Shown: positions 43,990 to 52,567, numbered from the stretch's first letter. The stretch is DNA of 64,000 nt from an uncultured Gemmatimonadales bacterium (GCA_963701965.1 OY969695.1:2272001-2336000), one strand, 5' to 3'. The notes: generated from the letters alone by a model not told the origin. Numbers and translations are program-made.

Positions 43990-44784
43990 ATGGACGACCT
44001 CCCCGCACCGGTGCCCGCCGGCGCGCTCGACCGCGCCGCGGTCGAGCGCGTCCTGGCCCGGGCGGCGGAGTTGCAGTCCCAGGGTGTGGGCGACGATCCG
44101 GCGGATGTCATTACTGACGCGCAGTTGATCGCCGCCGGCAGCGAGGTGGGCCTCTCGCTCACACACCTCCGCCAGGCCATCGCCGAAGAGCGGACGCGCG
44201 TGGGCATCCCGCTGGAGCGCGGTCTCCGCGCCCAGGTCGCGGGCGCCGGCACGGCTTCGGCTGGCCGCACAGTCGCCGGGACACCCGGCGCGGTGCTGGC
44301 GGCGCTGAATCAAACGCTCGTGCGCGACGAGAGCATGGCAGTCAAGCGCCGGTACGCCGAGCGCTGGACGTGGGAGCCGAAACGCGACTTCTGGGCGATG
44401 TTCCGCCGGCTTGGCGGCTGGCGCTTCGACCTCCAGTACGCCAGCGAAGTCGCGGCGACCGTCGTGGCGGTGGATGAGCAGCGCGTGGCGGTCCGTCTCG
44501 ACGCCGACGTCTCGCGCACACGCGATGCCCGGCTGGAGCAGGGGGCGGGCGTCGCGGCCGGCGGCGTGGCGACCGGCGTGGCGATGTTCGGGATCGGCAC
44601 CGCGGTTGCGCACCTGGTGGTCGCGGCGGTGGCCGTCACGGCCACCCTGCCGGTGATCGCCGGGATCGCGGGCGGATATATGTTGGCGCGCCGGCATCGC
44701 CAGACCGTGGAGCGGACGCAACTGGCGCTGGAGCAGGTACTCGATCGCCTGGAACATGGGGAACTGCGAGGGCGGCTGCCGTGA
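43990..44784 (+). CDS. Hypothetical membrane protein
   Basis: ERVLARAAELQ...EVGL..LRQAIAEE N-terminus; two C-terminal TM helices; GTGA-coupled to the next gene; alternative start 43957. Confidence 0.7.
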   Translation: MDDLPAPVPAGALDRAAVERVLARAAELQSQGVGDDPADVITDAQLIAAGSEVGLSLTHLRQAIAEERTRVGIPLERGLRAQVAGAGTASAGRTVAGTPGAVLAALNQTLVRDESMAVKRRYAERWTWEPKRDFWAMFRRLGGWRFDLQYASEVAATVVAVDEQRVAVRLDADVSRTRDARLEQGAGVAAGGVATGVAMFGIGTAVAHLVVAAVAVTATLPVIAGIAGGYMLARRHRQTVERTQLALEQVLDRLEHGELRGRLP

Positions 44785-45662
44785 TCGACTCGGTCGGAGT
44801 GCTCGGCGGTGGGCTCATGGGGAGCGGCATCGCCGAGGTTTCGGCACGCGCCGGTTTGCCGACGTACGTCAGAGAGGTCTCGGCGGAACTGGCCGACAAG
44901 GCGCGGCGGGCCATCGAGAAGTCGCTGGAGCGCGGCGTCGATCGCGGCAAGCTGACGCGGGGGGAGCGCGACGCGGCGCTGGCGCGCCTCGCGTTCGGCA
45001 CCGACCTCCAGGCCGCGGCCGTCGGCAAGATCGTGATCGAAGCGGTCGTCGAGGACATCGAGGTCAAGAACCACCTGTGGCGAGAGCTGAACCGGCTGGC
45101 GAAGCCCGAGACCATCTTCGCGTCGAACACATCGAGCCTCACGATCGCCGCCATGGCCATGGCCAGCGGGCGACCGGATCGGCTGATCGGGCTCCACTTT
45201 TTTAATCCCGTGCCGGTGATGCCCCTGGTCGAGGTTGTCCGCACCATTGGGACGAGCCGGGAGACGTTCGATGCGGCGGTCGCGCTGGTGACGCGGCTGG
45301 GCAAAGAGCCGATCGCCGCCAAGGACGCATCGGGGTTCATCGTGAACCGGCTCCTCGTCCCCTACATGCTGGACGCCGTGCGGGCGTTGGAGCAGGGGGT
45401 CGGCGCGACCCACGCCATCGATACCGCCATGCGGCTCGGCACGGGTCACCCGATGGGGCCCCTGACGCTGCTCGACTTCGTTGGCATCGACACGGCGTGC
45501 CGGATCGCCGAGATCATGTTCGACGAATACCGGGAAGAGCGGTTCGCCCCGCCGCCGCTGCTGCGCCGCATGGTACTCGTGGGCTGGTTCGGCCGGAAAT
45601 CCGGCCGCGGGTTCTACGACTACGCGACGGACCCACCGCAACCCACCGACCTAGGTCTGTAG
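44781..45662 (+). CDS. 3-hydroxybutyryl-CoA dehydrogenase
   Basis: GGGLMGSGIA, IEAVVE, ASNTSS, GLHFFNP, GFIVNRLL, PMGPL.LLD.VG, GRKSGRGFY. Confidence 0.93.
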   Translation: MIDSVGVLGGGLMGSGIAEVSARAGLPTYVREVSAELADKARRAIEKSLERGVDRGKLTRGERDAALARLAFGTDLQAAAVGKIVIEAVVEDIEVKNHLWRELNRLAKPETIFASNTSSLTIAAMAMASGRPDRLIGLHFFNPVPVMPLVEVVRTIGTSRETFDAAVALVTRLGKEPIAAKDASGFIVNRLLVPYMLDAVRALEQGVGATHAIDTAMRLGTGHPMGPLTLLDFVGIDTACRIAEIMFDEYREERFAPPPLLRRMVLVGWFGRKSGRGFYDYATDPPQPTDLGL

Positions 45663-47212
45663 TGCAGGGTCCGCCCGGATTTCTCGGCGCGTTCCGCGAC
45701 GACGTTCCCGCCCGCGCCGTGTACTCCGAGGCCGCGGGCATCGCGCGGATCACGCCGCTCGCCGTCGCCGTTCCCACGAGCGCCGACGACGTCGTAACGC
45801 TGGTCCGCTGGGCGAAGGCCACGCGGACGCCGCTCATCCCGCGGGGATCGGGGAGTAGCATGGCGAGCGGCGCGATCGGCCCCGGGGTCATCGTCGATCT
45901 GAGCCGCCTCGATACGATGCAACCCGTGGACGCGGCGCACCGCCGGGTGTGGGTCGGCCCGGGCGCGCTGCGCGACGCCGTCGATGCGGTCGCGGCGCGC
46001 GAGGGGCTGCGCTTTCCGGTCGACCCGTCGAGCGGCGCCTTCTGCACGATCGGCGGAATGGCCGCCACGAACGCCGCCGGCGCGCACGCGCTGCGCCTCG
46101 GCGCCATGCGGCGCTGGGTCACGGCGCTCGACTGCGTGTTCGCCGACGGCCGTCGCGAAACGATCCGCCGCGGCGGGGGCGCCGCCGCGCGTCCGGCGCT
46201 CGGGGTCAGAAAAAATTCCTCGGGATACGCGATCGGCGGGGAACTGATCGATCTGCTGGTGGGCAGCGAGGGCACGCTGGCCCTTTTCGTCGGCATCGAG
46301 TTGGCGCTGGACGCGCGGCCGGCGGCCACGGCGAGCATCCTGGCGGCGTTCCCCACCCTGGAGTCCGCGGTGGCCGGCTCGGCGGCGGCCCGTGACGCGG
46401 GCGCGGCGGCCTGCGAGTTACTCGACAAGACGTTTCTCGACGTCGCCGAGGGCGCCGCGGCGGCGGCGGGATGTCCGCCGCGGACCGAGGCGGTGCTCTT
46501 GATCGAGATGGAGGGCGGCGCCGCGGGCGCCTACGCGCTGGGCCAGGCGTTGGCGCGCGCGGGCGCGAGCCGCGTCGACGTGGCCCGCGATCCGGCGGCG
46601 GAGCGGGCGCTGTGGGCGCTGCGACATGCGGCCAGCCCGATTTTGGCGCGGCTGGATCCGGCGCTCAAGTCCATGCAGTTCATCGAGGACGGCGCGGTGC
46701 CGCCGGTCCGCCTCGCGGAGTACGTGCGCGGGGTGCGCGAGGCGTTGACGCGACACGGTGTCCGCGGGGTCATTTTTGGACACGCGGGCGATGCGCACAT
46801 CCACGTCAATCCGCTGATCGACACGCGCACGCCCGACTGGCGCGACCGGGTCGAAGCGCTCCTGGCCGACGTCGTGGACCTGACGGCGCGACTTGGCGGG
46901 ACGCTGAGCGGGGAGCACGGCGATGGGCGGCTTCGGACCCCACTGCTCGACGCCGTGTGGGACGCGGCGGCGCGCGAGTGGTTCGCGGACGTGAAACGCC
47001 AATTCGATCCGGACGGCATTCTGAATCCGGGCGTGAAGGTCCCCGTCCCCGGGCAGCGGGCGCTCGAGGACATCAAATACGATCCCGATCTCCCGGCGCT
47101 GCCGGCTGCTGCTGCCGCGGTGCTGGCCCGGGTCGAGCGCGACCGGGCATACGCGGCGTCGCGTCTCGCGTTGCTCGACGCCGCCGCTCCGCCTCGGGAC
47201 CCCGTCTCCTAG
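45662..47212 (+). CDS. FAD-linked oxidase (GlcD/D-lactate dehydrogenase family)
   Basis: PRGSGSS, VDPSS..CTIGG..ATNA.G, GSEGTL, FGHAGD.H.H, SGEHGDG, FDP.GILNPG. Confidence 0.88.
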   Translation: MQGPPGFLGAFRDDVPARAVYSEAAGIARITPLAVAVPTSADDVVTLVRWAKATRTPLIPRGSGSSMASGAIGPGVIVDLSRLDTMQPVDAAHRRVWVGPGALRDAVDAVAAREGLRFPVDPSSGAFCTIGGMAATNAAGAHALRLGAMRRWVTALDCVFADGRRETIRRGGGAAARPALGVRKNSSGYAIGGELIDLLVGSEGTLALFVGIELALDARPAATASILAAFPTLESAVAGSAAARDAGAAACELLDKTFLDVAEGAAAAAGCPPRTEAVLLIEMEGGAAGAYALGQALARAGASRVDVARDPAAERALWALRHAASPILARLDPALKSMQFIEDGAVPPVRLAEYVRGVREALTRHGVRGVIFGHAGDAHIHVNPLIDTRTPDWRDRVEALLADVVDLTARLGGTLSGEHGDGRLRTPLLDAVWDAAAREWFADVKRQFDPDGILNPGVKVPVPGQRALEDIKYDPDLPALPAAAAAVLARVERDRAYAASRLALLDAAAPPRDPVS

Positions 47213-47323
47213 CACGGCATTGTGCCCCTATCTTTGATCTCGCCGGATCGGATCTCGCGCCACCGGATCTCGCGCCTTCGCCGTCGTACCGTTCTCCCAA
47301 CTCTATTCTACCTTATAGAACAA

Positions 47324-48073
47324 GTGCTCTACCGCGCCCCGGTCGTTTCCGTGCTGTCCCGTCCCGTGTTCACGGAGCCCGCGCACTTGCCGGTGCACTG
47401 GCTCGGCGACAGCACGGACGGCGAGCGCCTCGCCGAGTTTGCCGGGCGGCTGTGCTACATGAGCCAGTCCAATCCGGCCGAGCGGGAGACCCGCGCCTAT
47501 CTGGAGAACATCAAGCGCCAGCGCCACGGGAGCGTCCTCGAGCACGCCAACTACTCGCTGCTCCTCGAGGGTGTGAGCCGCTCGCTGACGCACGAGTTGG
47601 TGCGACACCGGGCCGGCTGGGCCTTCTCGCAGTTGTCCCAGCGCTACGTCGACGAGTCCGAGGCCGCCTTCGTCGTTCCCCCGGCGATCGACGGCGACGC
47701 CGCGTTGGAGGCGGAGTGGCTCCGCCAGGTCGAGGAAGCGCAGACCACGTACGTGCGGCTGGTCGGGGAGCTCATGGAGCGCTACACGTGGGTCGCCGAC
47801 CGCGTGCACCGGCGGAAGATGGCGCGGGAAGCCGCGCGCGGCGTGCTCCCGAACTCGACGGAGACGAAGATCGTCGTCACCGCGAACGCCCGCGCCTGGC
47901 GGACGATGCTCGAATTGCGCGCGGGCGAGGGCGCCGACCTCGAGATCCGGCGACTCGCCGTCGCCGTGCTCCGGGTCCTCCGCGATGAGGCGCCCGCGTT
48001 CTTCTCCGACTTCGAGATCTACGTCGCCGACGACCGCCGCGACGCCGCGCGCGTCGGCTATCACAAGGTCTAA
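47324..48073 (+). CDS. thyX: Flavin-dependent thymidylate synthase
   Basis: AGRLCY, HGSVLEH, HELVRHRAGWAFSQLSQRY, EAARGVLP, N.RAW, EIR; start uncertain (47222 or 47324). Confidence 0.93.
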   Translation: MLYRAPVVSVLSRPVFTEPAHLPVHWLGDSTDGERLAEFAGRLCYMSQSNPAERETRAYLENIKRQRHGSVLEHANYSLLLEGVSRSLTHELVRHRAGWAFSQLSQRYVDESEAAFVVPPAIDGDAALEAEWLRQVEEAQTTYVRLVGELMERYTWVADRVHRRKMAREAARGVLPNSTETKIVVTANARAWRTMLELRAGEGADLEIRRLAVAVLRVLRDEAPAFFSDFEIYVADDRRDAARVGYHKV

Positions 48074-48164
48074 ATCAGAGCAAATCGCCAGAGTCTTTCG
48101 CGAAACGCGAGACGAGTCATTGCGCGACAAAATCGTAGTCGGTATACTCCCGCCAATTCGTAAC

Positions 48165-48180
48165 TGGCATCGCTCTTGCG
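48165..48180 (+). promoter_or_regulatory. Sigma54-type -24/-12 promoter for the ATP-grasp/GNAT/KamA operon
   Basis: TGGCATCGCTCTTGCG fits TGGCAC-N5-TTGC with one mismatch; 37 nt before the ATG. Confidence 0.68.
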
Positions 48181-48217
48181 CGTCCGTTGCACGAGGCTCA
48201 CGCACGCAAAGGACCGG

Positions 48218-49396
48218 ATGACGAGAATCGGATTCTCCTACAATCAGAAGCCAGAGCCCGATGCCACGGATCGAGGGCTGAGCGCCGCGAGTGGAGCGGT
48301 CGCCGGCAACGACGAAGACCCGGCTCGGGACGACGAACCTCCCAGTAGTCGCGCCGCGGCGCGCCGACTGGGAGCCGGCGCTTTTGGCCGCCGGGCGCTC
48401 GCCGAGCTCGAAGCCGACGACGAGTTCGCCGAATGGGATGATCCCCAGACCATCGATGCCGTCGAGCACGCCCTGTCCGCGCTGGGCGAGGTCGTGCGCT
48501 TGGAGGCGACGGAAGACTTTCCCGAGCGGCTGCGCGATGCCCGCCCGGATATCGTCTTCAACATGGTCGAGGGCCTGGGCGGGGCGAACCGCGAGGCGTT
48601 GGTGCCGGCGATCTGCGAGTTCTATGGAATTCCCTATTCCGGCAGCGACGCGTTCACGCTCGCGTTGTGTCTCGACAAAGCGCGGACCAAGGAGATCCTG
48701 TCCTACCACCGGATCCCGACCGCCGCGTTCCAGGTCGTCCACCACATCGACGACCTGGCCGCGCTGCGCCGGTTGGCCTACCCGCTGTTCGCCAAGCCGC
48801 TCCACGAAGGGTCCTCGAAGGGCATCACCGAGCGGAACCTGTGTCGCACCACGACCGAGCTCGACGCCCAAGTCGGCTTTCTGCTGGAGCGGTACCACCA
48901 GCCGGTGCTCGTCGAGGAGTTCCTGTCCGGCGACGAGTTCACCTGCGCGGTCCTCGGCAATGGCGCCGCGGCACAAGTGCTGCCGATCGTCGGCATCGAC
49001 TTCGGCGCCCTGCCACCCGGCGCGCTACCGATCTACGGATTCGAGGCGAAATGGCTCTGGGACCGGCCCGACAACCCGCTGCGGATCTTCGCCTGTCCGG
49101 CGCCCATCGATGATGAGCTGCGCCAGCAGATCGAACGCGTCTCCCTGGCCGCGTACCGCGTCCTCGGCTGCCGCGACTGGTCGCGGGTCGACGTCCGATT
49201 GGACGCCGCCGGTGTACCCAACGTCGTCGAGGTCAACCCGCTTCCGGGCATGCTCCCCGATCCCGCGGACAATTCCTGCTTTCCGAAAGCAGCGCGGGCG
49301 GCGGGGATGACGTACGATGAGTTGATCCAGACGTGTCTACTCAACGCCGCCGAGCGGCAACACGTGCACATCAAGGCCAAAGGGAGAGGGGCGTGA
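48218..49396 (+). CDS. Ddl-like ATP-grasp ligase 1 (not a canonical D-Ala-D-Ala ligase)
   Basis: VFNMVEG, PYSGSD, LDKARTK, KP.HEGSSKGI, VEEFL.G.EF, RVDVR, EVNPLPG; lacks the N-terminal GG.S.E motif. Confidence 0.85.
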   Translation: MTRIGFSYNQKPEPDATDRGLSAASGAVAGNDEDPARDDEPPSSRAAARRLGAGAFGRRALAELEADDEFAEWDDPQTIDAVEHALSALGEVVRLEATEDFPERLRDARPDIVFNMVEGLGGANREALVPAICEFYGIPYSGSDAFTLALCLDKARTKEILSYHRIPTAAFQVVHHIDDLAALRRLAYPLFAKPLHEGSSKGITERNLCRTTTELDAQVGFLLERYHQPVLVEEFLSGDEFTCAVLGNGAAAQVLPIVGIDFGALPPGALPIYGFEAKWLWDRPDNPLRIFACPAPIDDELRQQIERVSLAAYRVLGCRDWSRVDVRLDAAGVPNVVEVNPLPGMLPDPADNSCFPKAARAAGMTYDELIQTCLLNAAERQHVHIKAKGRGA

Positions 49397-50445
49397 AAGT
49401 CGCGATTCTATTTGATGGCGCCTCGGCCCTGGGCAAGACGCCCGACATGCTGATCCTCGAGGCGGTCGAGGCGGTCGAGCACGTGTTCGCGGACGACGGC
49501 CACGAAGTCGTGCGCATTCCCGTCAATCCGGACGCCCGCTGGATCGAGCGAATGCGGAAGGCGAAGTTCGACCTCGCCTTCAATCTGTGCGAGGGCGTCG
49601 ACGGCGTCGCGTCGTTGGAGCCCGCGGTCGTTTCGGTGCTGGAGCTTCTCGGCGTCCCCTACAGTGGCAGCTCCAGCGCGACCACCGCCCTGTGTCTGCG
49701 CAAAGATCTGGTGAACAGCCTCCTCGACCGGTTCGGGCTCCCCGTGCCCCGTTGGTCGGTGACCCGCCCGGGCGGCGCCCTGCCCGCCGTGGGATTCCCG
49801 GCGATCTGCAAGCCGGCGGCCGAGGACGCATCACTCGGCGTGGAGCAGCGGTCGGTCGTCCGGACGGGCCGCGCCCTCGCCGAACGGATCGACGCCATGC
49901 ACGAACGCTGGAACGACGTGATCGTCCAGCGCTACATCGACGGCCGCGAAGTGAACGTGGGCATCATCGGGGACCGTGTCCTCCCGATCGCCGAGGTCGA
50001 CTTCGGCGCCATGCCCCGCGGGATGTGGCGGATCGTCTCCTATCGTTCGAAATGGGTGACCGGGAGCGACGAGGACCTCGGAGCCGCGCCCCAATGCCCG
50101 GCCGACCTCCCGTCCGAGCTCACCGCCGAGATCGTGACCGTCGCGCTCGCCGCGTGGCGGGCCGTCGGCGGCACCGGCTATGGTCGGGTCGACATGCGCA
50201 TCGACCGCGCCGGCCGCCCGTGGATCCTCGAAGTCAACGCCAACCCCGACTTGAGTCCCGGCGCCGGTCTCTCGCGGATGGCCGAGACGTTGGGACTCGA
50301 CTATGGCGCGCTCATTCGTCTCATCGCCGCGCAGGCGCTTGCCGTACGGGCGGACGTGTCGGCCGACCAGTGGGCGCTCACGCAGCAGCTGTCGGGCGTC
50401 GAGCTGACGCTCGACACCGGCGCGCCGGCCGCCGCCACCGGGTGA
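49393..50445 (+). CDS. Ddl-like ATP-grasp ligase 2
   Basis: FNLCEG, PYSGS, KPAAEDASLG, YIDGRE.NV, GYGRVDMR, EVNANP; GTGA-coupled. Confidence 0.85.
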   Translation: MKVAILFDGASALGKTPDMLILEAVEAVEHVFADDGHEVVRIPVNPDARWIERMRKAKFDLAFNLCEGVDGVASLEPAVVSVLELLGVPYSGSSSATTALCLRKDLVNSLLDRFGLPVPRWSVTRPGGALPAVGFPAICKPAAEDASLGVEQRSVVRTGRALAERIDAMHERWNDVIVQRYIDGREVNVGIIGDRVLPIAEVDFGAMPRGMWRIVSYRSKWVTGSDEDLGAAPQCPADLPSELTAEIVTVALAAWRAVGGTGYGRVDMRIDRAGRPWILEVNANPDLSPGAGLSRMAETLGLDYGALIRLIAAQALAVRADVSADQWALTQQLSGVELTLDTGAPAAATG

Positions 50446-50948
50446 CGACGCGACCGCTGACTCGGCACGACCGCGAGTCACTGGAAACCCTCATCCTCGC
50501 GACCGGCGCGTTCTCGGCGTCCGAGACCGATGTCGCGCTGCAGGTGTTCGACGAAGCCTTCCCGCCCGACGAGGGCACGGGCGATCCCGACTACGCGTTT
50601 CTGGGCGTATGCGACGCCGCGGACACCGCCCGGCTCCTCGGGTACGTCTGCTATGGTCCGATTCCGGGCAACGACCGCGGATACGACGTCTATTGGATCG
50701 CGGTCCATCCCGGCGTCCAGCACCGCGGGCTCGGCACGGTGCTCATGCACGAGGTCGAGTCCCGCCTCGCCGCCTGGAGCGCCCGCCTGATCGTCGTCGA
50801 AACCTCCGGCCGGGCCGCCTACGCGCTGACGCGCGCGTTTTATGCAAGGCTCGGCTACACCGAGTCGGGCCGGGTCCGCGGCTTCTACGCTCCGGATGAC
50901 GATCGGGTGCTGTTCACCAAACGCCTAAAAAGCTCTGGTGCCGCATGA
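50442..50948 (+). CDS. GNAT family N-acyltransferase
   Basis: YWIAVHP.VQHRGLG, VETS...Y..TR.FY..LGY; GTGA-coupled. Confidence 0.85.
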   Translation: MTTRPLTRHDRESLETLILATGAFSASETDVALQVFDEAFPPDEGTGDPDYAFLGVCDAADTARLLGYVCYGPIPGNDRGYDVYWIAVHPGVQHRGLGTVLMHEVESRLAAWSARLIVVETSGRAAYALTRAFYARLGYTESGRVRGFYAPDDDRVLFTKRLKSSGAA

Positions 50949-52027
50949 GCGAATGGCAACAGGTCCTCAAGAATCAGAGCGTCGCGACGCTCACCGCGCT
51001 TGCCGAGCGGTTCGGGACGGAGCAGATCGACGTCGACGCGCTGGCCGAGGCCTTCGACCGGTTCCAGATGCGGATCACTCCGGCGGCCCTCGATCTCATC
51101 AAGGCCCCCGACGATCCAATGTGGCGCCAGTACGTCCCCACGGTGGAGGAGCTGGACGTCGTCGACGGCATCACGGACTCCCTCGACGAGGACGCGGACT
51201 CCCCCGTCCCCAACATCACGCATCGGTATCCCGACCGGGCGCTCTTTCTCGTGAGCCCGGTCTGCGCGTCCTACTGCCGGTTCTGCACCCGCCGGCGGAA
51301 GGTCGGCGATCCCGAGAAGATCCCGCTCAACCAGTACGACTCCGCGTTCGCCTACCTCCGGGCCCACACCGAGATCCGCGATGTGATCCTGAGCGGCGGC
51401 GATCCGATGATGCTCTCCGACCGGCGGCTGGAGTATCTGTTCGAGCAGCTCCGGGCCATCCCGCATATCGAGATCATCCGGATTGGCAGCCGGATTACGT
51501 CCCATCTGCCCGAGCGGATCACGCCCGAGTTCTGCGAGATGGTCCAGAAGTACCATCCGGTCTACATGAACACCCACTTCAATCACCCGGATGAATTGAC
51601 GCCCGCCGCCGTGGCGGCGCTGGACCGCCTGTCCAAGGCGGGCATCCCGCTGGGGTGTCAGACCGTGCTGCTCAAGGGCGTCAATGACGATCCCGTCGTC
51701 ATGAAGGCCTTGATGCATGCGCTGCTCAAGGCCCGGGTCCGGCCCTACTACATCTATATGGCCGACCAGGTCGCCGGTGGCGAGCACTTCCGAACCACCG
51801 TCGAGAAGGGACTGGAGATCATCGCCGCCCTGCGCGGGTGGACGTCGGGACTCGCTGTCCCCCACTTCGTGATCGACGCCCCGGGCGGAGGCGGCAAGGT
51901 GCCGCTCCTACCCGAGTACGTCGACGAGATCACGGACGAGAAGGTCGTGTTCCGGAACTTCCGCGGGCAGCGCTTCGAATACCGGCAGCCCAGAGCAACA
52001 GCCAAAAGCAACTCCATCAGACAATAA
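50945..52027 (+). CDS. KamA-family radical SAM/PLP aminomutase (lysine 2,3-aminomutase-like)
   Basis: THRYPDR, CASYCRFCTRRR, SGGDP, THFNHPDE, Q.VLLKGVND, RPYY, SGLAVP..VIDAPGGGGK; ATGA-coupled. Confidence 0.9.
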   Translation: MSEWQQVLKNQSVATLTALAERFGTEQIDVDALAEAFDRFQMRITPAALDLIKAPDDPMWRQYVPTVEELDVVDGITDSLDEDADSPVPNITHRYPDRALFLVSPVCASYCRFCTRRRKVGDPEKIPLNQYDSAFAYLRAHTEIRDVILSGGDPMMLSDRRLEYLFEQLRAIPHIEIIRIGSRITSHLPERITPEFCEMVQKYHPVYMNTHFNHPDELTPAAVAALDRLSKAGIPLGCQTVLLKGVNDDPVVMKALMHALLKARVRPYYIYMADQVAGGEHFRTTVEKGLEIIAALRGWTSGLAVPHFVIDAPGGGGKVPLLPEYVDEITDEKVVFRNFRGQRFEYRQPRATAKSNSIRQ

Positions 52028-52036
52028 AAGCGGCGA

Positions 52037-52567
52037 TTAGTCGCCCTCCGTGTCATAGGCGAGGCCGTCGGCTTCGCGGAACGTGTCGAGCAGTGACTCC
52101 CCCGTGAGGCGCATCGCCTCGGTGAGCGGGGTCATCGAGAAACCGATCGCGCGCCGCGACCCTTCCGGCCAGTCCGGCATCGAGAGCCCCGCGACGAGTC
52201 GCCGGATGATCTGGCCGAACTCGCCCAGCAACCGACCCGCCGTCTCGCGCAGCGTGTCGAACGGGATGGTCAGATCCCGGATCACCATCTGGCCCGTGGT
52301 GGAATCGCGCCACGCGGCATCGCCGACGGCGCCCCGCTCCGGCCAGATACCGAGATTGCGGATCGTCCCTGAATGCTCGTCCGGCGTGCGGTTGGTTTCG
52401 ACCGCGGCCGCCAGCGCCAACGCCAGTGTATCCGGTGTGGGTTGACCATAGAGCGTCACCACATTGCGCGGCGGCCGATCAGGATACTGGGGCGCCGGCA
52501 CCAAATTCACATGCGCGAGCACTGGTGAGTGTTCGGGGTGATCCTCGAGCATGACGAGGACGTCCAT
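52037..52567 (-). CDS. Hypothetical protein
   Basis: 176-aa ORF with strong SD (AAGGAGG) upstream; no family recognised. Confidence 0.65.
   Translation of the reverse strand: MDVLVMLEDHPEHSPVLAHVNLVPAPQYPDRPPRNVVTLYGQPTPDTLALALAAAVETNRTPDEHSGTIRNLGIWPERGAVGDAAWRDSTTGQMVIRDLTIPFDTLRETAGRLLGEFGQIIRRLVAGLSMPDWPEGSRRAIGFSMTPLTEAMRLTGESLLDTFREADGLAYDTEGD

Follow-up and report, generated by a model that had tools for sequence, protein, structure and literature searches.

Two Ddl-like ligases, an acetyltransferase and a KamA-family aminomutase in a conserved Gemmatimonadota operon: a candidate pathway to an acetyl-capped beta-lysine amide

Why should a bacterium place a relative of lysine 2,3-aminomutase, two homologues of D-alanine-D-alanine ligase (Ddl) and an acetyltransferase in a single operon? 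The question is raised by four genes in a 64,000-nucleotide stretch of DNA from an uncultured Gemmatimonadales bacterium (GCA_963701965.1, OY969695.1:2272001-2336000; hereafter the window). They encode two ATP-grasp enzymes, ligase A and ligase B, a GNAT-family acetyltransferase and KamA, an aminomutase of the radical S-adenosylmethionine type that uses pyridoxal phosphate (PLP). The open reading frames called in the window all lie on the plus strand and are joined by GTGA, GTGA and ATGA overlaps, exactly as a first-pass annotation of the DNA had described.

We incline, if only slightly, to the view that the operon ligates beta-lysine into a small cationic amide and then caps the product with an acetyl group. 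KamA would convert L-lysine to beta-lysine. Ligases A and B, possibly acting as a heterodimer, would build beta-lysine into a small cationic compound resembling a di- or tripeptide, forming two ATP-dependent amide bonds in succession. The GNAT would use acetyl-CoA to cap a free amine of the ligated product as the last step. The gene set, its coupling and conservation, the gene fusions, the catalytic residues, the acidic donor pocket and the pattern of mutant fitness in Desulfovibrio alaskensis G20 are observed; the substrate, the order of steps, the heterodimer and the product are inferred.

Enzymes of the operon

KamA belongs to its family by score (TIGR00238, 288.5 bits against a cut-off of 199.2) and is likely to be lysine-specific. 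The lysine model TIGR03820 matches best, with 431 bits, ahead of those for glutamate (389), arginine (324) and EpmB (228), and the protein aligns to PDB entry 2a5h with an E value of 4e-110. In that alignment R116, D274 (in YMAD), D311 (in VIDAP) and K318 (in GGGGK) correspond to Arg134, Asp293, Asp330 and Lys337 of 2a5h, as counted from the alignment; we take these residues to bind lysine and PLP. R116, D274 and D311 are invariant in 14 of 14 relatives. The CxxxCxxC motif (C107, C111 and C114), the PLP lysine and the two acidic residues had all been picked out by the first-pass annotation, and the comparison with 2a5h bears them out. KamA is the only such enzyme found in the host genome, which is 95% complete. 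A search of the same genome with PF09043 (lysine 5,6-aminomutase, of the lysine fermentation pathway) gave no match, the control being positive in 0 of 14 genomes.

Another basic amino acid, such as ornithine or arginine, might be the substrate of the aminomutase, in which case the product would not be a beta-lysine compound. Several features of KamA point that way: it lies under the lysine equivalog cut-off (431 against 525 bits), its identity to lysine aminomutases, whether known or annotated, is only about 50%, and its two aspartates would suit other basic substrates too. Our proposal is weakened by the low score and also by the length of KamA: the alignment ends at residue 368 of the 416 in 2a5h, so that the C-terminal extension of the clostridial enzyme, a part which presumably binds zinc, is missing, and Cys268 of 2a5h is an aspartate in KamA. 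Nevertheless, the lysine model leads the others by 42 to 204 bits, and the one relative with a solved structure, a lysine 2,3-aminomutase, shares long runs of identical residues with KamA around the active site. We consider a different substrate improbable and treat beta-lysine as the putative substrate of the steps that follow.

The EpmA/EpmB/EF-P system likewise uses a KamA-family enzyme to make beta-lysine for amide formation. A role for KamA as EpmB is rejected, because no EpmA scores over the cut-off in the host genome (the best TIGR00462 match, below the cut-off, reads as a full-length lysyl-tRNA synthetase) and the tip of the host EF-P (C1:1216231-1216779) is TPGN, with Asn at the position where Lys or Arg is usually modified. 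The EpmB model also scores lowest of the four. The earlier statement that the operon is not an EpmB system therefore stands.

Ligase A matches PF07478 with an E value of 5e-35. On the Ddl model TIGR01205, with a cut-off of 246 bits (245.65), ligase A scores 155 and ligase B 123; the canonical Ddl of the host genome, at C1:2,716,594, scores 308. Models of the Van family give at most 120 bits for the two ligases against cut-offs of 495-775. The ligases share 34% identity and fall into separate clades, far from the host Ddl, in a FastTree phylogeny of 136 rows; as the tree held only one true Ddl and showed no support values, it tests the ligases against Ddl and Van incompletely. That the two ligases differ from each other, and that neither is a true Ddl, had been proposed from the sequence; both statements hold, the second strengthened by the loss of His63 described below.

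Residues of the ligases were mapped to E. coli Ddl through the host genome's own Ddl, using residue numbers that we take to be those of the E. coli enzyme. Both ligases keep Lys97, Lys144, Arg255, Asp257, Glu270 and Asn272 (K154, K193, R323, D325, E338 and N340 in ligase A, where G344 is also kept; K104, K140, R265, D267, E280 and N282 in ligase B). The ATP-grasp core is thus intact, as the first-pass annotation had it, and both enzymes are likely to be active. The fold and all the ATP/Mg and oxyanion-site residues are shared with Ddl and Van.

The donor and acceptor sites depart from those families. The first-pass annotation had drawn attention to the absence of the GG.S.E motif of true Ddl. 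The literal motif is indeed absent, but ligase A retains its glutamate, equivalent to Ddl Glu15 (E72, within AEWD; 84 of 90 clade-A sequences have Glu), and ligase B has an aspartate there. A sharper departure is the replacement of His63 by glutamate, shared by 89 of the 90 A-type sequences and all 21 of the B-type. Ddl Glu68 is an arginine in 88 of 90 A-type sequences, and the donor site of ligase A comprises E72, E118 and R125. Ligase B has E67 for His63, W221 for Tyr216, D286 for Gly276 and A291-G292 for Ser281-Leu282. An extra carboxylate beside the kept equivalent of Glu15 would fit a donor with two amines, and the acidic donor pocket would suit a diamino acid. In an AlphaFold2 model of ligase A (pLDDT 89.6), for which the best fold matches are DdlB structures, E72 lies in a loop between a low-confidence insertion (approximately residues 20-55) and the helix 76-87.

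The acceptor site bears on a different reading, in which the ligases attach beta-lysine or its acetylated form to a larger acceptor such as a protein terminus, a polyamine, a lipid or a surface glycan. The changes of Tyr216 to Trp or variable residues, and of Ser281-Leu282 to Ala-Gly in ligase B, are in keeping with an unusual acceptor; some distant relatives lie beside SET-domain genes (contigs L100 and L103) or a PLP decarboxylase (L097), and the nearest named family of the GNAT, RimI, is a protein acetyltransferase, though the match is far below the cut-off. Against this, the operon has no conserved neighbour that would supply an acceptor, a glycan or a lipid, and the fold is closest to that of Ddl, a small-molecule ligase. 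We regard attachment to a larger acceptor as unlikely.

The GNAT has a clear counterpart. Its profile matches PDB entry 2r7h with an E value of 1e-45 (the second-best match has 1.5e-7), and 2r7h is also the top hit in a fold search, with TM-scores of 0.84-0.89; the title of the entry names DDE_3044. Identity of the GNAT with AblB is rejected, since neither the protein nor the host genome yields a match to the AblB family (TIGR03827), for which the control was positive in 6 of 14 genomes. The operon had been distinguished from AblA/AblB at the outset, and this agrees.

Comparison with known systems places the operon between them. Lysine 2,3-aminomutase and an acetyltransferase (AblA/AblB) together make N-epsilon-acetyl-beta-lysine, an osmolyte. 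The AblA/AblB system of methanogens, as presented in the available parts of PMC1224877 and PMC3543383, resembles the operon in combining a lysine 2,3-aminomutase and a GNAT in one operon and in its link to salt stress. The present operon differs in its two added ATP-grasp ligases, in a GNAT that is a 168-residue protein of the Dde_3044 type and in a KamA that is shorter than AblA and below its cut-off. Ngg is the GNAT/ATP-grasp enzyme of N-acetylglutaminylglutamine amide (NAGGN) synthesis. NAGGN itself, like the proposed product, is an acetylated dipeptide solute of non-ribosomal origin with masked charged groups (PMC1224877, in part); our operon has no amidotransferase, an aminomutase instead, and ligases of the Ddl type. 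Compared with Ddl and Van, the ligases are two paralogues, often fused and dispensable, in a host that has its own Ddl; they carry Glu for His63, Arg for Glu68 (ligase A) and Trp for Tyr216, and score below all cut-offs. The pathway resembles AblA/AblB and NAGGN in part and is a member of none of AblA/AblB, Ddl, Van or EpmB.

Gene order and spread

Counts of gene order refer to the best 80 of 293 loci. Seventy-seven of these carry Gemmatimonadota labels, the closest relatives being Gemmatimonadaceae. The arrangement ligase A-ligase B-GNAT-KamA occurs in 60 loci and ligase A-ligase B-KamA in 13, while seven stop at contig ends, so that the order of ligase A, ligase B and KamA is kept in all 73 loci that are long enough. 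A survey of this kind had been suggested with the first-pass annotation. Among 151 genomes of the phylum, ligase A is present in 73 and a close KamA in 64, all of them among the 73, although these counts include kin and are not independent.

Gene fusions link the same components. At least 26 of 150 distant representatives have two ligase domains in one protein, four have a ligase joined to KamA and three a ligase joined to another type of GNAT. The conserved association of an aminomutase, two amide-bond ligases and a GNAT that had been postulated is thereby borne out, with all parts represented in fusions. One member of the cluster is labelled as a Nitrososphaerales archaeon. Twelve metagenome loci include one with the order KamA-ligase A-ligase B-GNAT followed by a PLP decarboxylase and one with KamA-ligase A-ligase B. 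A scan of named genomes returned close kin only, so the spread across phyla is thinly covered.

In nine of the 13 loci classed as lacking the GNAT, the gene persists as a decayed remnant between ligase B and KamA. This remnant is a conserved spacer of 390 nucleotides, which was considered as a structured RNA and rejected: it gave no Rfam match in the three loci searched and an unfavourable covariation term (+3.2 kcal/mol). A DNA profile built from intact GNAT genes matches nine of nine spacers, eight of them at two colinear places, with best scores per spacer of 4-13 bits, while none of 140 shuffles scored above -0.1.

In genomes with ligase A and no close KamA, seven of the seven regions that were opened keep ligase A-ligase B-GNAT. 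One genome, G145, has a distant KamA directly behind the GNAT on the same strand. Because distant KamA genes also occur in genomes without ligase A, we regard this as one replacement in place and not a rule. Four distant KamA proteins were aligned (28-29% identity); they keep the equivalents of R116, D274 and D311, with the lysine one residue earlier in its loop, and three of the four genes precede a class III aminotransferase gene. Pairs of KamA with a class III aminotransferase of the PRK05769 type are seen in several Gemmatimonadales and in Deinococcus radiodurans (L109:723-3537, L113:580-3358, L115:2627-5489 and L091:5890-9259); they possibly represent a catabolic route for beta-lysine.

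A search of the full-text literature, with subscription journals and bioRxiv supplements outside its range, found neither the gene set nor Dde_3041-3044 described. The pathway is real, conserved and apparently undescribed in print. If our proposal is correct, it would yield a small molecule not known before and a specificity class new to the Ddl fold, and give a purpose to a clade of KamA that has neither EpmA nor AblB. Thousands of genes annotated 'D-alanine-D-alanine ligase' would also need re-labelling: there are 7,057 matches at E <= 0.001 among 8,000 scored candidates, and nearly all named top matches carry that label. The present copy of the operon contributes the tandem promoter described below, an acidic donor pocket that is invariant, the losses of the GNAT and a phenotype, already published, by which the order of steps can be tested.

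Mutant phenotypes and the order of steps

D. alaskensis G20 carries the same four gene types in a contiguous run on one strand, consisting of a sigma54 regulator (Dde_3040), a lysine aminomutase family gene (Dde_3041), two Ddl-like genes (Dde_3042 and Dde_3043) and the GNAT gene Dde_3044 (from the available part of PMC4045070). The order, KamA-ligase-ligase-GNAT, differs from ours, as does the adjacent sigma54 activator gene; the link to sigma54 is shared, the GNAT is the best sequence and fold match, and the run is likewise uncharacterised. The same source lists all of Dde_3040-3044 as dispensable, with arrayed mutants, and ddlB (Dde_0366) as expected to be essential. Our proposal is therefore open to test in this organism, which offers arrayed transposon mutants of the four genes and the regulator, a GNAT crystal structure and a published phenotype condition.

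Those data bear on an alternative peptidoglycan dipeptide pathway of the Van kind or, equally, on an exported antibiotic. Ddl and Van are the nearest named families and folds; yet a canonical Ddl over the cut-off exists elsewhere in the genome, the ligases have lost His63, genes for an exporter, a D,D-peptidase or a dehydrogenase were not seen next to the operon, one relative is labelled archaeal and the G20 genes are dispensable where ddlB is expected to be essential. Nor does the operon have the neighbours of a Van cluster, its flanks being thyX, an FAD-linked oxidase gene and unassigned genes. We think such a pathway highly improbable, and the role as a cell-wall precursor that had been among the earlier suggestions is weakened by the dispensability in G20 and by the archaeal label.

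Fitness values for G20 mutants are taken from the available strain table of PMC4215793, which covers 82 experiments with pooled mutants; Dde_3044 is represented by two mutant strains and three tag measurements, and values beyond 1 are described by the authors as highly reproducible. In one experiment with 800 mM NaCl the Dde_3044 mutants gave -1.00, -1.63 and -1.29, the minimum of the 82 experiments in all three measurements; in the other 800 mM NaCl experiment the values were -0.57, -0.77 and -0.97. At pH 6.0 they were -0.77, -1.01 and -0.73, and at pH 8.5-9.5 between +0.05 and -0.27. For Dde_3041-3043, the eight rows considered, of nine in the file, all fall within -0.50 to +0.12 in NaCl and within -0.40 to +0.07 at pH 6.0; mutants of the convergent gene Dde_3045 range from -0.37 to +0.09 in NaCl. 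Under phosphate limitation Dde_3043 is near zero and Dde_3044 lies between -0.53 and +0.46 (G20 supplement, in its available part). The G20 supplements on pressure and nitrate contain no rows for the counterpart genes.

We read this pattern as flux through the pathway under salt or acid stress, with the uncapped product harming the cell. A defect confined to the GNAT fits acetylation as a last, capping step better than the sequence of acylation followed by ligation that was first suggested. Similarly, the idea of a compatible solute required for growth in salt is weakened, as KamA and ligase mutants are not salt-sensitive in these pooled assays and GNAT mutants are; deletion of abl, by comparison, blocks growth at high salt (PMC1224877 and PMC3543383, in part). 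The pathway would then be a dispensable stress-protective or nitrogen-holding solute route, in which an uncapped intermediate is a burden under salt or acid stress.

Harm upon loss of the GNAT alone would also fit a polycation. The ligases could iterate to an oligo- or poly-beta-lysine, or to a mixed polyamide that stores nitrogen, with the GNAT limiting chain length or charge; the frequent fusion of the two ligases and the predicted sigma54 control agree with this. Enzymes of the Ddl fold, however, close a lid over two small substrates, which speaks against a polymer. No conserved hydrolase gene neighbours the loci, and the G20 phenotypes concern salt and acid, nitrogen limitation being outside the 82 experiments. 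A polymer seems to us hardly probable.

Returning to ligation of beta-lysine followed by acetyl capping, a number of observations weigh against it. Capping cannot be needed in every case, since 13 of 73 Gemmatimonadaceae loci have the GNAT in decayed form or have lost it. Nine genomes have ligase A without a close KamA, eight of them with a distant one, and G129, 94% complete, has ligase A and no KamA match at all. Some distant relatives of ligase A have neither KamA nor a GNAT with them, and at several metagenome loci ligase A lies beside other ATP-grasp or SET-domain genes with no GNAT. In the G20 data, Dde_3041-3043 were matched to the operon by annotation and not by alignment, one of the two NaCl sets for Dde_3044 and most of the pH values are weaker than the reproducibility mark of 1, and the GNAT-only defect could arise from an unrelated substrate of that enzyme. 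That KamA and ligase mutants show no salt defect speaks against an osmolyte which the cell requires, with the caveats that G20 has a separate annotated ablA and that cross-feeding may occur in pooled cells.

Promoter region and genomic surroundings

Two predicted promoter elements precede the operon (Table 1). The upstream one, of the sigma70 type, lies just outside the region covered by the first-pass annotation and was missed by it; it scores 8 of 12 against the E. coli consensus, and a simple promoter scan missed it too. The pattern TTGCRH-N17-TAYHHT is found upstream in 39 of 50 dereplicated relatives, with two more at N16, none at other spacings and none in controls; since the pattern was drawn from the same sequences, it is the sharp spacing and not the count that is evidence.

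The second element had been reported as a sigma54-type promoter. Its GG-N10-GC spacing is correct, but the motif alone is not above chance, TGGCA-N6-TTGC having nine copies genome-wide against 13-28 at other spacings. By conservation it does rise above chance: YGGCR-N6-YTGC occurs upstream in 29 of the 50 relatives, against three at most at any other spacing from 3 to 10, one on the reverse strand and three in a coding control. The motif was not found in nine more distant loci that were checked. Spacing between the two elements was compared in 41 relatives. In 28 of them the GG begins 45-48 nucleotides beyond the sigma70-like -35 (46 in the present operon), in one the interval is 56, and 12 lack the GG. 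The start codon, by contrast, lies anywhere from 71 to 210 nucleotides from the -35.

Polymerase bound at the sigma54 site would sit over the beginning of the sigma70 transcript and might thus act as a switch or roadblock; basal expression may come from the sigma70-like promoter and be switched by sigma54. A point against this is that rpoN is split in two frames near C1:5,047,194 in the host assembly (gene C1:5046401-5047832). The split is either an assembly error or a real pseudogene, the former being likely as several other loci show similar frameshifts in operon genes. The host genome encodes 13 sigma54-activator domains, none of them within the window. A paper on the sigma54 regulome of D. 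vulgaris mentions the operon gene set neither in its main text nor in its supplements, and the available part of a general sigma54 survey lists COG1509 for Bacilli only (PMC12316311).

A bolder version of our proposal can be put forward as a possibility, tentatively. The operon may make an undescribed stress metabolite that is widespread in bacteria and occurs in some archaea: a beta-lysyl peptide with an acetyl cap, assembled by two Ddl-derived ligases that pair as a heterodimer and have a diamino-acid pocket. The peptide would be toxic in its uncapped form under salt or acid; the operon's tandem promoter would be fixed, with a sigma54 polymerase parked on the first 30 nucleotides of the sigma70 transcript as a roadblock until activated.

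Table 1. Predicted features of the operon in window coordinates
Feature	Position	Strand	Length (residues)	Description
Sigma70-type promoter	48120..48148	+		Predicted; TTGCGC-N17-TATACT
Sigma54 promoter	48165..48180	+		Predicted -24/-12 element; TGGCATCGCTCTTGCG
Ribosome-binding site	48209..48213	+		Likely; AAGGA, 4 nt 5' of the ATG at 48218
Ligase A	48218..49396	+	392	Ddl-fold ATP-grasp enzyme
Ligase B	49393..50445	+	350	Second Ddl-fold ATP-grasp enzyme
GNAT	50442..50948	+	168	Acetyltransferase of the Dde_3044 (PDB 2r7h) family
KamA	50945..52027	+	360	Radical-SAM/PLP 2,3-aminomutase, likely lysine-specific

The GC content of the operon equals that of the window. Its immediate flanks are thyX upstream and a convergent gene downstream. 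Where there is enough sequence, 72 of 72 loci have thyX upstream, and what lies downstream varies, so no conserved transporter, hydrolase or acceptor gene is associated with the operon. The upstream block (window 44781-48073, plus strand) comprises a hydroxyacyl-CoA dehydrogenase-like gene, the FAD-linked oxidase gene and thyX, found in 45, 68 and 77 of the 80 loci respectively. Downstream, a minus-strand gene for a 176-residue protein (52037-52567), with no Pfam or NCBIfam match, recurs in 26 of the 80 loci; a terminator-like hairpin at 52032-52045 is oriented to serve it.

Relatives of the ligases occur in other settings. Low-GC metagenome contigs (L100:9-1810, L103:5185-8023, L098 and L101) carry ligase A next to another ATP-grasp gene, itself divergent, and lack a GNAT in the vicinity. 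Two of them, L100 and L103, add a SET-domain gene beside ligase A, where methylation may replace acetylation. At L095:42-4769 ligases A and B are followed by two ATP-grasp_4 genes, giving four ATP-grasp enzymes in a row.

Seven plasmid regions were opened and contained no copy of the four-gene set. Plasmid pTHIMO01 of Thioflavicoccus mobilis (L088:3557-9038) has a related Ddl-like ligase among diaminobutyrate/diaminopropionate genes together with KamA, which favours our proposal; genes for a diaminobutyrate transaminase, SbnA, an ornithine cyclodeaminase homologue and the ligase face KamA, beside IS66, and the region is a candidate diamino-acid peptide cluster. Rhizobial plasmids (L089:6773-9855 and L090:6800-10060) carry a single related ligase with Glu for His63; its neighbour is a CapA-family gene in NGR234 and an MFS transporter gene in S. 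medicae. Plasmid pRlvC of Rhizobium leguminosarum (L092:2984-8095) encodes a KamA without the Asp330 equivalent, behind a different ATP-grasp gene and near a fixA-family gene. Elsewhere in the host genome, a tRNA-Sec gene is called at C1:354852-354948.

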